Shown piece after piece: positions 4,262-9,674 of a DNA stretch of 64,000 nucleotides. Under the pieces are notes generated by a model, which was given only the letters and a program-made list of their open reading frames with translations, did no database searches and was not told the origin of the DNA. The DNA is from Candidatus Altimarinota bacterium (GTDB lineage: Bacteria; Patescibacteriota; Gracilibacteria; BD1-5; UBA2023), in contig JAYVJC010000042.1 of assembly GCA_043769645.1 (NCBI GenBank), positions 990 through 64,989 of the forward strand. The letters are read 5' to 3'. Made by a program: the position numbers and the translations under genes. Each line of letters starts with the position of its first letter. Position 1 is the first letter of the stretch.

Positions 4262-5725
4262 ATGAAGACAGCACTTGTGATATGATCTGGCATAAGTGGA
4301 CTGGCTATCGCTTGTTATCTTGCGAAGGCAGGCTATAAGGTGCAGCTATATGAGAAAAATAATCAACTCTGATGACGATCTGGCCTCTTCCAAGAAGCAT
4401 CATATACCTTCGATATGTGACCTTCATGGTATCTTATGCCTGAGATATTTGAAGAATTTTTTTCATATTTTTGAAAGAAAACATCTGACTACTATACGAG
4501 CGAAAAGCTTCATCCAGCATATCGGATATTTTTCTCTGATCAGGATTTTGTAGATATATCGACGAAACTCGAAGATAATATAGAGCTTTTTGAGATTCTA
4601 GAGCCATGAGCATGAGAAAGACTATTAGAATATATATCTATCGCAAAAGAGGAGTATGAAGTAGCAATAGGATCTTTGATCCAGAAGAATTATGATTCAT
4701 TCAGTGATTTATTTTCACTGAAGGGTCTCCGATTTATAGCAAAATTCAAAAATTTCATAAGCTATGAGTCATATGTAAGAAAATATTTCTCATCACCGAA
4801 ACTCCAGAAAATTCTCCTCTATACCTCTGTTTTTCTTGGCTGAAGTCCGAAAAATACACCCGCACTCTACTCACTCATCAACCACTGTGACTTCAATGAT
4901 GGGGTATACTTCCCAAAAGGCTGAATATATTCTCTAGTTCAAGCATTCGTATCTCTCGCAGAGGAGCTCTGAGTAGAGATGCATACGAATAGAGAAGTGA
5001 AGAAAATAATGATAGAAGATGGGAGAGCTCTATGAATAGAGCTCGAATCATGAGAAATACTCTGAAGTATCGTGGTATCAAGTGGCGACTATCACTATGC
5101 AGACCAGGTACTCATAGATCCAAAATATAGACAGTATACGCAGAAACAGTGGGATTCTATGACGCTTTCACCGAGTGGATTTATACTGTATCTCGGGATA
5201 CATAAGAAAATCCCAGCATTGCAGCATCATACGTTATTCTTTGATCCTGATTGGGATAATCATTTTGATTCTATATATAAGGATAAAACTCTTTGTGAGA
5301 CTCCCTCATACTATGTATCTTGCGTGAGTAAGACTGATACTTCAGTTGCTCCAGCTTGATGTGAAGCAGTATTTATTTTTGTGCCTACTGCTACATGACT
5401 CAAGCTGAGTGAGTGAGAGAAAAACAAGTATGCAGATAAGATTATCTCTGGACTTTCTCGAGCCATCTGAGAAGATCTTGCATGATGTATAGATATGCGG
5501 AGGATATACACCGGAGATGATTTTTCGAAGGATTATTTTGCCTTTGGAGGCAATGCTCTGGGTCTTGCCCATACTTTTAGGCAGACACTGACACTCAGAC
5601 CCAAGAATAAACATCCGAAAGTTTCTTGACTCTATTTCACTGGACACTATACAACGCCTGGAACGGGTATGCCGATGGTACTTATCTCATCGAAACTCGT
5701 AAAAGATAAAATTTTAGCAGACTAA
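4262..5725 (+). CDS. crtI: Phytoene desaturase
   Basis: ATG at 4262; the frame is open to TAA 5723-5725 with about 13 in-frame TGA. The N-terminus is MKTALVIGSGISGLAIACYLAKAGYKVQLYEKNNQLGGR...FDMGPSWY (FAD Rossmann fold plus CrtI signature, with TGA on the conserved Gly). Track ORF 5072..5359 is the middle of the gene. The C-terminus reads GLYFTGHYTTPGTGMPMVL. Confidence 0.9.
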
Positions 5726-5735
5726 TACATCTACT

Positions 5736-6575
5736 ATGGGTGCCCTACAACAATCTCTCTTCAAAAAATCTTCAAAAACCTTTTATTATAGTACTCTATT
5801 TTTCCCGAAGTATATTCGATCAGATATACATGATCTCTACGCATTTGTAAGAACAGCTGATGACTATGTGGATACTCTGCCTCAGGATAGAGAAGCATTT
5901 TATCGATTTCGTAATAATTCACTCTCGGCCCTCGATCATCCAGATACGCGATCTCATGATCCTATCATTGCTTGATTCGTCGATGTATATAAGAAGTATG
6001 ATTTCAGGAAAGAGTGGGTAGAGTCTTTCTTACAGGCGATGGAGTCAGATCTATCGGTCGTATCTATGACTGATGGAGAAGCGCTAGAGAAATATATGTA
6101 TGGGAGTGCTGCCGTAGTATGATATATGATGTGTGCTATATTTTCTATAGATGATCCCGATAGCCTCTATGCTGCAAAAATGCTCGCATACTCTATGCAG
6201 TGTATAAATTTCATACGCGATGTCGCTGAAGACAATGAACTCGGAAGAAAGTATCTTTATGATATCGGCGGCATACGCCATAGTTGACTGATTATTCAAG
6301 ATGAATATTTATCTCCATTTATAGATCTCCACCTGAAAAACTATTATGCGTATCTCCGCAAAGCACAGGCATGACTCTATGATCTCCCTCTTGCCTTCAG
6401 GGTACCAGTCCTCACAGCAAGCGATATGTACGCATGGACTGCCAGAGAGATAGAGAAGAATCCATCTGTTATCTTCAAAAGAAAAATAAAACCTACAAAG
6501 GGGCAAATTATGATCCATGCAATACGGAACTTTATAGTAGAGTGAGTATGACTTACTCGTTTGATGAAATCATAG
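5736..6575 (+). CDS. crtB: Phytoene synthase
   Basis: Track ORF 5736..5975 continues in frame (5 TGA) to TAG 6573-6575. Squalene/phytoene synthase Asp-rich motifs YAFVRTADDYVD and NFIRDVAEDNELGRKY are present. Confidence 0.9.
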
Positions 6576-6663: not shown

Positions 6664-7500
6664 CTAGATTTTTATCCTCCTATACATCCTGTGCATCGTG
6701 ATAACATGAGGAAAACTCAAGCAGGCTATAAAAATAAAAAATAATCCCCACTGTGAGTAGGCATCGCTATAATTCGTAAGAGGCCAAAAAAAATAAAATA
6801 ATCCTCATATAATCCAAGCACCTACATGAAATGGAAGCGACTGTAACCAAATATCTTTACTCTCTGTATGAAGGTATATTTTTAGGTGTTTCCAGCCTGT
6901 GAGGCTATGTTGTCCGATAAAGTATATGCCAAATGCGAATAATAGAGGAATTTGACTCGAGAGTATGAGAAAGATTATAGTAAGAAACAGTGAGAACTGT
7001 TTCCTATATATCGCCCAGAGGAGCCAAGGGGTCAAAAACCAAACTGGAATAGCAAATAGGAGTGGAAGACTGCCAATAGAAGTGAGAATGGTATTCGTCT
7101 CATCGAAGTGTGTCCCGAGGATATATACGAGCACAGAGATACCCCAAAGGAGTGAAGTCATACAGTCGAAATCCCAACTCTTTCCATCTGCTTCTCCAAA
7201 ATGCCACATAGAATAGAGTAGGAATACGATAAGTGCTATTTGTGGTATCCAGAGCCATAGTATTCCCATCATTAGAGCAAGGAGAAGATATCTCAAGATA
7301 AATATCGGTGCTTTTCTCTGATTCCATAAACCCGCTCCGAGTAAATGATCGACCGCCCCATGTGGTATACCTACCGTGATCATCCCGAGAGCAAATAATA
7401 TGAATCCTATCTCAGTCTGGAAAGAGGTATACTGTCCAAGAAGTATGAAAAACAGAGTTATAAGTATCAGTACTGACGGTCGAAACCATGGAGAGCTCAT
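6664..7500 (-). CDS. blh: Brp/Blh-family beta-carotene 15,15'-dioxygenase (retinal synthesis)
   Basis: Track ORF 6805..7500 continues past TGA 6805-6807 to TAG 6664-6666 (278 aa). It is a multi-TM protein with His motifs GIPHGAVDH, MWHFGEAD, IGQHS and SFPHV, as in Brp/Blh enzymes. It lies between crtY and crtB, close to a rhodopsin gene. Confidence 0.8.
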
Positions 7501-7518
7501 AATTTTTTTAGAGAGAAC

Positions 7519-8682
7519 TCAGAGAAATGGTTTCCAAGGTAACTGGTAAAAAATAGATATTTCTTCGCGTATATTTGTTTTCTCATCCAGGAATTTGAGT
7601 GTTTTCTGGATATCTATTTTTTGGAGCAATGTCATAAAGATAGACTTGCCATACTCTGGAGTATTTTTTAGGATATCTAAAAGGAGAGAATCATACCATG
7701 TGAAACGACTTTGTAGAATCGCTCTATACTCTCTACTCGGTATATCCATAGTTTCACTTTTCTTGAGAGCTAGAGCAATGTCGAAAGCCTGACGATACAT
7801 ATTCTTGAAGGCATACCCCGTACTTGCCTTGATATTATAGTTTCTTGCCCCGATATTTATGACGCCTTGTATGCTTTCGTTTTGGATCCTCCTCTGAGTC
7901 ATGGGGATACATCCTATTTCGATATCGATTCGCCTGAATGCTCCGTACGATTTCTGGATATATTTTTTTAAGATTATTTCTGCTTCTCGAGTCTCGATAG
8001 CGAGTTCACCAAAACGTGTCACTTCTACTAAGGCTCTCGTAGGAGAAAAAGGGAGTACATAAACAAACTGTGTACATCCTTGTTGTTCTATATCAAAATC
8101 CATAAATCGAAAAACCTCAGGATCTATGATATCACCATCGGTCTCGATCATCCAGCCTACGAAACTCTGGAGGATATGCGGTGTTCCAGTTTTTAGCGCC
8201 TCGTATGAGGGAGTACGTGAATCAAAGACTCTATCTCCTCTCACTTTTATATCATTTAGTTCTACAAAAATCCCTTCATCATTTCTAGAAATATGAGTTA
8301 TAGGATGTATGAGTATATCCCATCTATGAATCTTTATAAGTTCTTCGATCTTATGATAGAGATCACTACTATCGATATGATGGTATGAGAGGGGTGAGAG
8401 ATTTATGGGTTCTTGAGTACAGAGCTCAAGCTTATCCCATGACTTTGTGATGAGATCTTTCAGATGGAGGGAAATAGGCTCATCTGCATACGACCAAAAA
8501 CAAAAAGTTTTATCTTTTCTATTTTTCTCCTCTTTATCTATAAGCAGTACTTTTTTACTCGTCAGAAGGCCATTTCGAAAGAGTTCTAAGATCAAGAGTG
8601 AAGTAGAAGCACCCATGCCACAAAATATATAATCATATTTTGAAATATTTTTTTCTCATATTTGCAGCTTATTTTTTCTCAT
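7519..8682 (-). CDS. crtY: Lycopene beta-cyclase (FAD-dependent CrtY type); its terminal codon is TGA, in frame with blh
   Basis: Track ORF 7519..8616 is extended to ATG 8680-8682 so that the dinucleotide-binding motif KYDYIFCGMGAS is included. Length (~387 aa) and context fit CrtY. The end at 7519-7521 is a TGA, a sense codon under table 25, followed by 6 codons and the blh ATG in the same frame. Confidence 0.8.
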
Positions 8683-8924: not shown

Positions 8925-9674
8925 ATGGACATCACAGTAGCGCAATTCGACTTGGTATACAATGCCTTCTCATTTGCCTTAGCGGGTATGGGTGCAGCGA
9001 CTCTCTTCCTCTGGCTCGAGCGATCTCAAGTCGCTCCACAGTATCGTACCGCGCTCACTATCTCTGGACTCGTGACGGCGATAGCGACATATCACTATTT
9101 CCGTATTTTCAATAGCTGGGATGCATCCTATTCGGTGGTAAATGGAGTCATCGCATCGACAGGACATGCTTTCAATCATGCATATCGATATGTAGACTGG
9201 CTTCTCACTGTACCTCTTCTTCTCGTAGAACTCCTACTCGTGATGAGCCTATCGAAGAAGGAAACATATTCAAAAGCACTTTGGTTCGGACTCATGGCAG
9301 CGATCATGGTCATCCTCGGGTATCCTGGAGAAACTTCTACTGATATGTCTACGAAGCTTCTGTGGTGGGTTCTTAGTATGATACCATTTGTCTATCTTGT
9401 GTTTCAGCTCTTCGTCGGACTCAGTGATTCTATCAAGTCTCAGCCGGTAGGAGTAAAAGGCCTCATAGTGACAGCACGATGGATCATCCTCGCTACTTGG
9501 TGTTTCTATCCTATAGTCTATATCCTTCCTCTTATCGGATTTAGCGGTGGGGATGCTGATGTTGCAGTACAAGTCGGATATACGATAGCGGATCTTCTCG
9601 CAAAAGCGGTATTTGGTATATATATCTACTTCATCGCCGTACACAAGTCTGAGGGATGAGTTCATAAAGCGTAG
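8925..9674 (+). CDS. Microbial type-1 rhodopsin, proteorhodopsin-like outward proton pump (DTE motif)
   Basis: Track ORF 8925..9659, then TGA plus 4 codons to TAG 9672-9674. Seven hydrophobic helices. Helix C RYVDWLLTVPLLLVEL aligns with proteorhodopsin RYIDWLLTVPLLICEF (D91/T95/E102). Leu99 sits at the spectral tuning site (green type). Helix B TYHYF carries the conserved His. Helix G TIADLLAKAVFG carries Schiff-base Lys227 (codon 9603-9605). Confidence 0.9.

Follow-up and report, generated by a model that had tools for sequence, protein, structure and literature searches.

A CrtY-Blh fusion gene in a recoded Gracilibacteria genome and the in-frame TGA within its conserved linker

Does an in-frame TGA between two carotenoid-processing domains mark the end of one gene, the relic of a former stop, or simply a glycine? 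This question is raised by a 64,000-nucleotide stretch of DNA (hereafter the window; positions 990 to 64,989 of contig JAYVJC010000042.1) from a Candidatus Altimarinota bacterium, in which a crtY (lycopene cyclase) frame runs through a TGA into blh (beta-carotene dioxygenase). The original prediction, made from the letters of the window, proposed that either a fossil stop had created a fusion by becoming readable or this TGA is still read as a stop between coupled genes. Our analyses support a different answer: the locus from 8682 to 6664 is very probably a single gene that encodes one CrtY-Blh polypeptide, with all three of its TGAs specifying glycine and with a fusion that is ancestral and was acquired already fused.

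The predicted reading frame was borne out by the exact text of the junction, which on the minus strand is ...TGG AAA CCA TTT CTC TGA GTT CTC TCT AAA AAA ATT ATG AGC... and translates as ...WKPFL-TGA-VLSKKI-M-SSPW. The TGA and the ATG share a frame, six codons lie between them and neither a TAA nor a TAG intervenes. Under translation table 25 the frame is open for 672 codons, giving a polypeptide of ~670 amino acids (the estimate had been ~650) with the junction peptide ...PFLGVLSKKIMSSPW... when glycine is placed at codon 388. Table 11 divides the same region into two pieces, 7519..8616 and 6805..7500. The first of these would start at Met23, inside the dinucleotide-binding motif YDYIFCGMGAS, and a start at 8682 with TGA codon 9 read as sense is therefore needed. 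An assembly error at codon 388 was considered and rejected, as the same TGA is present in three separate metagenome-assembled genomes (MAGs) – those of the window, L013, and L014/G296. The features of the locus are collected in the table.

Features of the crtY-blh locus and its neighbours (window positions)
Feature	Coordinates	Strand	Remarks
crtY-blh fusion gene	6664..8682	-	672 codons plus TAG (6666..6664); table 25, TGA=Gly
TGA codon 9 (Gly)	8656..8658	-	Non-conserved N-terminal tail; TGA also in congener G296
CrtY-type lycopene cyclase domain	7525..8634	-	Residues 17-386; Pfam PF05834
Linker helix	7498..7536	-	Residues 383-395 (WKPFLGVLSKKIM); spans supposed stop, spacer, and start
TGA codon 388 (Gly)	7519..7521	-	Variable position within conserved inter-domain linker
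ATG codon 395	7498..7500	-	Internal Met, not conserved as a start
Blh (Brp/Blh beta-carotene 15,15'-dioxygenase) membrane domain	6685..7488	-	Residues 399-666
TGA codon 626 (Gly)	6805..6807	-	Point where table-11 gene calls cut Blh short
crtI (phytoene desaturase)	4262..5725	+	Profile matches; 19 TGA codons
crtB (phytoene synthase)	5736..6575	+	PF00494, 153.8 bits; convergent with crtY-blh
Xanthorhodopsin/Gloeobacter-rhodopsin-type opsin	8925..9674	+	PF01036; divergent from crtY-blh

The genome that contains the window (G000; 1.20 Mb, 56 contigs, 41% GC, 92.6% complete) uses code 25, the Gracilibacteria and SR1 code in which UGA is glycine, and we found nothing in it that terminates on UGA. 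Among named genomes, the nearest to it are MAGs labelled 'Candidatus Gracilibacteria bacterium'. A single release factor is encoded and passes the release factor 1 (RF1) model (457.8 bits; cut-off 423). The sole match of a release factor 2 (RF2) profile search was this RF1 locus, below cut-off, which at 92.6% completeness makes the absence of RF2 probable. RF1 does not read UGA. We identified one tRNA gene with anticodon UCA, whose acceptor end (G1-C72, C2-G71, G3-C70, U73) is common to both tRNA-Gly genes and unlike that of tRNA-Trp. ARAGORN labels this gene a selenocysteine tRNA, a designation ruled out by its 7-bp acceptor stem, its U73, and the GCG/CGC set that it has in common with the tRNA-Gly genes; TGA is also far too frequent in the genome for a selenocysteine reading. 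Among 664 non-overlapping long open reading frames (ORFs), TGA makes up 20.5% of glycine codons and is found in 635, and the stops are TAA (425) and TAG (239), with no others. Consistent with a glycine assignment, 10 of the 19 TGAs in crtI align with glycines of the solved homologue PDB 4rep_A – the GxGxxG motif included – and six columns that are glycine in 26 of 26 standard-code sequences hold TGAs in crtY-blh from two other recoded contigs. With no RF2, a glycine-type tRNA(UCA), and TGA at glycine positions, we conclude that UGA is decoded as glycine, and that the single fused polypeptide foreseen under this code is the one to expect.

Profile searches recognized both halves of the predicted protein. 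The PF05834 Lycopene_cycl model scored 126.2 bits (cut-off 23.4), with residues 17-386 covering model positions 1-375 of 380. The dinucleotide (FAD/NAD(P)) binding motif is present, with D17, F20, and G22 invariant, and a fold search of the PDB found that the CrtY half resembles FAD-dependent reductases and hydroxylases. No solved Blh-like structure was among the top matches of that search, which recognized only the flavoprotein half. In the Blh half, PF15461 (BCD) matched residues 433-666 with 111.1 bits (cut-off 28) and TIGR03753 (Brp/Blh) scored 126.9 bits (cut-off 95.25). Six histidines (H441, H446, H494, H525, H592, and H659) are invariant across 29 sequences, and all of them fall in helices of the structural model, in which this half has 12 helices. 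Conserved histidines in the membrane helices of a marine Blh are reportedly iron ligands, according to mutagenesis. The seam between the two halves is narrow: the CrtY model match ends at ~391 and homology with stand-alone Blh begins at ~399, at 'FRP'.

To place the gene in a broader context, we compared it with related proteins and genomes. A database search with the 672-residue protein returned 639 matches, and the best 120 are all 599-714 amino acids long with both Pfam domains. When one genome per species was scanned, a relative was present in 326, of which 80 make up the junction comparison. These 80 comprise two Gracilibacteria MAGs, one further recoded MAG, and a remainder labelled almost entirely as Bacteroidota (Flavobacteriales, Cryomorphaceae, Crocinitomicaceae, Saprospiraceae, Chitinophaga-labelled MAGs, Cytophagales, Sphingobacteriales, and Kapaibacterium). 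In all 80, a single tblastn segment spans residues 370-420 and no stop occurs at the junction, so that the TAA, TAG, or frame shift that would have marked separate genes was found in none. Among the 80, in-frame TGAs within crtY-blh are limited to the three recoded genomes, and a TGA at codon 388 was seen only in the window, L013, and L014. Both end motifs could be anchored at 71 loci, and in 68 of these the ~536 codons between the motifs are free of every standard-code stop. The nearest standard-code genes (L002 and L006; 57% identity) have complete table-11 translations with zero TGA.

Within the window's own class the fusion is rare: among 401 sampled genomes, just two have it, those of the window and of its congener. 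A distant CrtY-like frame (L012, at G218:C23:1896-3050; 26% identity), with 16 TGAs and two TAAs inside the match, is present in a different family of that class. A Saprospiraceae MAG of 1.2x coverage (L051) has one in-frame stop outside the junction in a standard-code fusion that is otherwise intact; this stop is probably a sequencing error or the sign of a young pseudogene.

Consistent with the junction being coding sequence, the residues on both sides of codon 388 are conserved across the family. In an alignment of 121 full-length sequences the stretch 380-405 is free of indels in 119, with L381 (97%), P382 (95%), F386 (100%), A389 (70%), L390 (82%), F400 (75%), R401 (79%), and P402 (88%) conserved. 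The window's supposed spacer, V-L-S-K-K-I, is homologous to the A-L-F-K-K-I conserved in relatives. Column 388 itself is variable (S24 K21 Q18 W13 A10 R9 ... G4, with L and others also present). Column 395, where the original prediction placed the start of blh, is a methionine in just six of the 121 sequences, and its codons in relatives include ACT, ATT, CTT, and ACA – so this ATG is not a conserved start. An AlphaFold model built with a 29-sequence alignment (predicted local distance difference test score, pLDDT, 86; predicted template modelling score 0.77) folds residues 383-395 into one helix (pLDDT 94 for the block 381-390 and 88 for the block 391-400), and the first membrane helix comes next, at 400-415. 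One conserved, confidently modelled helix thus takes in the supposed stop, the spacer, and the start.

The codons found at position 388 follow relatedness. TGA is present in the window, L013 (93% identity), and L014/G296 (91% identity); these three genomes are 91-93% identical and count as one event. The synonymous GGA replaces it in the next recoded relative (L001/L016; 61% identity), an exchange for a GGN codon that the original prediction had named as informative. The recoded L004 has AAA and the remaining recoded relatives have Lys, Gln, or Tyr in their translations. CAA occupies the position in the sister Bacteroidota clade (L002/L006), and other relatives have AGC, AAA, AGA, CGC, TGG, and others.

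We next used trees to examine the history of the fusion. Recoded sequences were recognized by their own DNA, or by tryptophan at invariant-glycine columns in code-4 translations. The 121 full-length sequences gave a tree in which all seven recoded ones group as a single clade (Shimodaira-Hasegawa-like approximate likelihood ratio test support 99), with a small clade of Bacteroidota as its sister (support 100). A second tree, of the Blh half and with distant stand-alone Blh as its root, places the recoded clade inside the standard-code fusions at a depth of several nodes. An origin of the fusion in recoded bacteria followed by outward spread was rejected on the strength of this rooted tree, the rarity of the fusion in the class, and the code itself: outward spread is barred because TGA-glycine codons fail in a standard-code recipient, and transfer in the reverse direction is harmless. 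We infer that the fusion arose in Bacteroidota, that the already fused gene entered an ancestor of some recoded bacteria in one transfer, and that codon 388 there became a glycine GGA, which in this genus would then have changed synonymously to TGA. With a fusion that is old and a gene that was fused before its entry, TGA388 is a glycine codon, probably a later synonymous one, and no relic stop.

Stand-alone Blh genes of 309-339 amino acids also exist in standard-code Bacteroidota (L094 4001-5020; L095-L097), and in the Blh tree some of them are placed between fusion sequences. They have N-terminal tails with no relation to CrtY, and one adjoins a rhodopsin. Loss of the CrtY domain, or a splitting of the fusion, thus seems to have happened repeatedly. 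Certain other 'stand-alone' Blh entries are fragments from short contigs.

The TGA does stand near the domain seam, as stated in the original prediction, and within a few codons of the end of the CrtY Pfam match at residue 386, but its placement is not beyond chance expectation. With three TGAs in 672 codons, the chance of a TGA in the ~14-codon boundary zone (386-399) is ~6%, rising to ~20% if the mean TGA density of the genome is used instead (15.4 per 1000 codons), and the window offers roughly 300 TGA codons among which a striking case could be picked. TGA density also varies widely within the pathway – about ninefold between crtI (19 in 487 codons) and crtY-blh (3 in 672) – and crtY-blh in two other recoded lineages contains 14 TGAs. 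If separate crtY and blh genes had been fused here through a fossil stop, by a change of code or by transfer into a recoded host, then the nearby end of CrtY, the in-frame ATG six codons downstream, and the same-subfamily stand-alone Blh genes whose homology begins just past the TGA would all be explained. We nevertheless consider this history very improbable, as at least 68 standard-code species genomes have an uninterrupted ORF with a sense codon at column 388 and a conserved, indel-free linker, the recoded clade is nested within them, GGA or codons for other residues occupy the site in other recoded relatives, and the step from recoded bacteria to Bacteroidota would have been closed to a gene full of TGA-glycine codons. 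Termination at TGA388 in its particular context, with CrtY and Blh made separately, would fit the 18-nt spacing before the ATG, which resembles that of a coupled pair, and it is exactly these two pieces that table-11 gene callers yield. It has very little probability in a genome with no RF2, an RF1 that does not read UGA, and a cognate tRNA(UCA): codon 9 must be read to keep the dinucleotide-binding strand, the 'spacer' is conserved protein sequence within a predicted helix, and L001/L016 has a synonymous codon at the same site. A slow codon kept at the boundary to pause translation for CrtY folding or for membrane targeting of the first Blh helix is likewise very improbable. The presence of the TGA in three related genomes and the single tRNA(UCA) gene found would suit such a role, but those genomes amount to one event, TGA is a common glycine codon here, and the site is GGA in the next relative and AAA, or Lys, Gln, or Tyr, in the other recoded relatives.

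Some observations weigh against a single fused gene product with the predicted activities and ancestry. Gene starts in this genome lack a Shine-Dalgarno signal (such 4-mers precede 26 of 662 starts, compared with 81 of 656 internal ATGs); the regions upstream of starts are AT-rich and G-poor, and position -1 is a T in 67% of them. The 20 nt before ATG395 are likewise AT-rich and G-poor with a T at -1, Met395 is kept in the three closest genomes, and Bacteroidota have viable stand-alone Blh of this subfamily – features that would fit the production of some free Blh from ATG395 in addition to the fusion. We regard such dual output as unlikely, given the scarcity of Met395 in the family and the fact that AT-rich, G-poor stretches are common inside genes at 41% GC. 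The nesting in the Blh tree comes from quick tree searches in which some supports are 84-94, below 95. The CrtY half falls below the NCBIfam cut-offs (29.4 vs 215.2 bits for the equivalog model TIGR01789 and 61.7 vs 209.5 bits for TIGR01790); it appears to be a divergent branch of the superfamily for which beta-cyclase activity is predicted but not assured. Finally, no isopentenyl diphosphate (IPP) pathway is visible to supply the substrate: we found no IspH, HMG-CoA reductase, or GHMP-kinase domain in the 56 contigs of this 92.6% complete genome, and neither the methylerythritol phosphate nor the mevalonate route is visible.

The favoured interpretation – one ancestral CrtY-Blh fusion with TGA read as glycine – places the gene in an existing family of such fusions. 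We found no description of a bacterial CrtY-Blh fusion in the literature searched. The closest known proteins are from Bacteroidota, mostly freshwater: FGM41_02425 of 'Bacteroidetes bacterium ZLKRG02' (VEQB01000033.1), AD998_20975 of 'bacterium 336/3', and proteins of Flavobacteriales, Saprospiraceae, and Cryomorphaceae MAGs. They are ~660-680 amino acids long with the same domain order, are 45-58% identical to the window's protein over the whole length, and have the indel-free linker LPWxPFLxALxxK...WFRP, often with an adjoining rhodopsin gene. They differ in using the standard code with no in-frame TGA, and their annotations go no further than 'hypothetical', 'lycopene beta-cyclase', or 'Brp/Blh family'. 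The fusion is widespread among Bacteroidota, of which many were sampled in lakes and ponds, and the window's crtY-blh appears to be a horizontally acquired new member of this existing family that makes ordinary use of its organism's code.

More distant parallels exist. The four-domain CrtI-CrtB-CrtYc/d-Blh protein of Thecamonas trahens was tied by its authors to retinal production (PMC10016063). It resembles the present fusion in that a Blh domain directly follows a lycopene cyclase domain within a single polypeptide, but it is eukaryotic, has two further domains, and uses the unrelated CrtYc/d membrane-type cyclase, making it an independent fusion event. The stand-alone Blh proteins of proteorhodopsin clusters (TIGR03753), among them the close Bacteroidota relatives P0126 and P0148, have 47-55% identity to residues 399-672 and share the invariant histidines and the helices, and P0126 adjoins a rhodopsin gene; they lack a CrtY domain and have short N-terminal tails unrelated to the linker. 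Nature has also joined successive or related enzymes of the carotenoid pathway in the fungal lycopene cyclase-phytoene synthases CarRA/CrtYB, which differ from crtY-blh in partner enzyme, cyclase family, and organisms.

As predicted from its domains, the protein would consist of an N-terminal flavoprotein lycopene beta-cyclase joined by a short structured helix to a multi-pass membrane beta-carotene 15,15'-dioxygenase. Together with crtI and crtB it would convert lycopene to beta-carotene and then to two retinal molecules for the adjacent xanthorhodopsin-type pump. The opsin matches known structures (6nwd_A, E=6e-76; 3ddl_A, 4e-70), and its alignment has the DTE motif and the Schiff-base lysine (yryvDwllTvplllvE and adllaK), consistent with the DTE rhodopsins reported for Gracilibacteria (PMC8406219). 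Some host-dependent Gracilibacteria may therefore produce their own chromophore, having this fusion beside crtI, crtB, and a proton-pump-type rhodopsin; rhodopsin-bearing Saccharibacteria lack blh (PMC9296517). A polyprenyl synthase is encoded (C48:4025-4699) alongside crtB, crtI, and crtY-blh, and carotenoid and retinal synthesis may rely on isoprenoid precursors taken up from outside.

The fixed linker and the defined domain packing of the model make channelling of beta-carotene between the domains plausible. A bolder proposal, which we advance only tentatively, is that the fusion is a dedicated 'retinal synthase' – one in which a rigid, length-invariant helix would hold the cyclase against the dioxygenase for direct hand-over of beta-carotene with no free pool, and which would have evolved in Bacteroidota and been captured whole by an ancestor of some Gracilibacteria. 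If this were true, a 1.2-Mb bacterium without a visible IPP pathway would make its own retinal from host-derived isoprenoid precursors. The natural fusion offers a ready template to those working on retinal production and a system in which possible channelling could be tested.

These results also bear on annotation. When a TGA falls in frame between two domains of a table-25 genome's protein, relatives should be checked before it is taken for the end of a gene or for a relic stop. Public protein collections contain, beside the correct 672-residue call, fragments from recoded contigs that result from table 11 or from truncation at TGA (P0122, 231 amino acids; P0130, 331 amino acids), which would wrongly imply separate crtY and blh. 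The former is a 100% identical entry that corresponds to the table-11 fragment 6805..7500. Other relatives (P0003, P0028, P0033, P0039, and P0049) are stored as code-4 translations with tryptophan at invariant glycine positions.

The opsin probably differs in origin from crtY-blh: judged by sequence, it is ~32-35% identical to the rhodopsins that adjoin the fusion gene in Bacteroidota relatives (L006, L018, L022, and others). Its 3' end (9657-9674) reads ...HKSEG TGA GTT CAT AAA GCG TAG, with four codons between a TGA close to the expected C-terminus and the actual stop.

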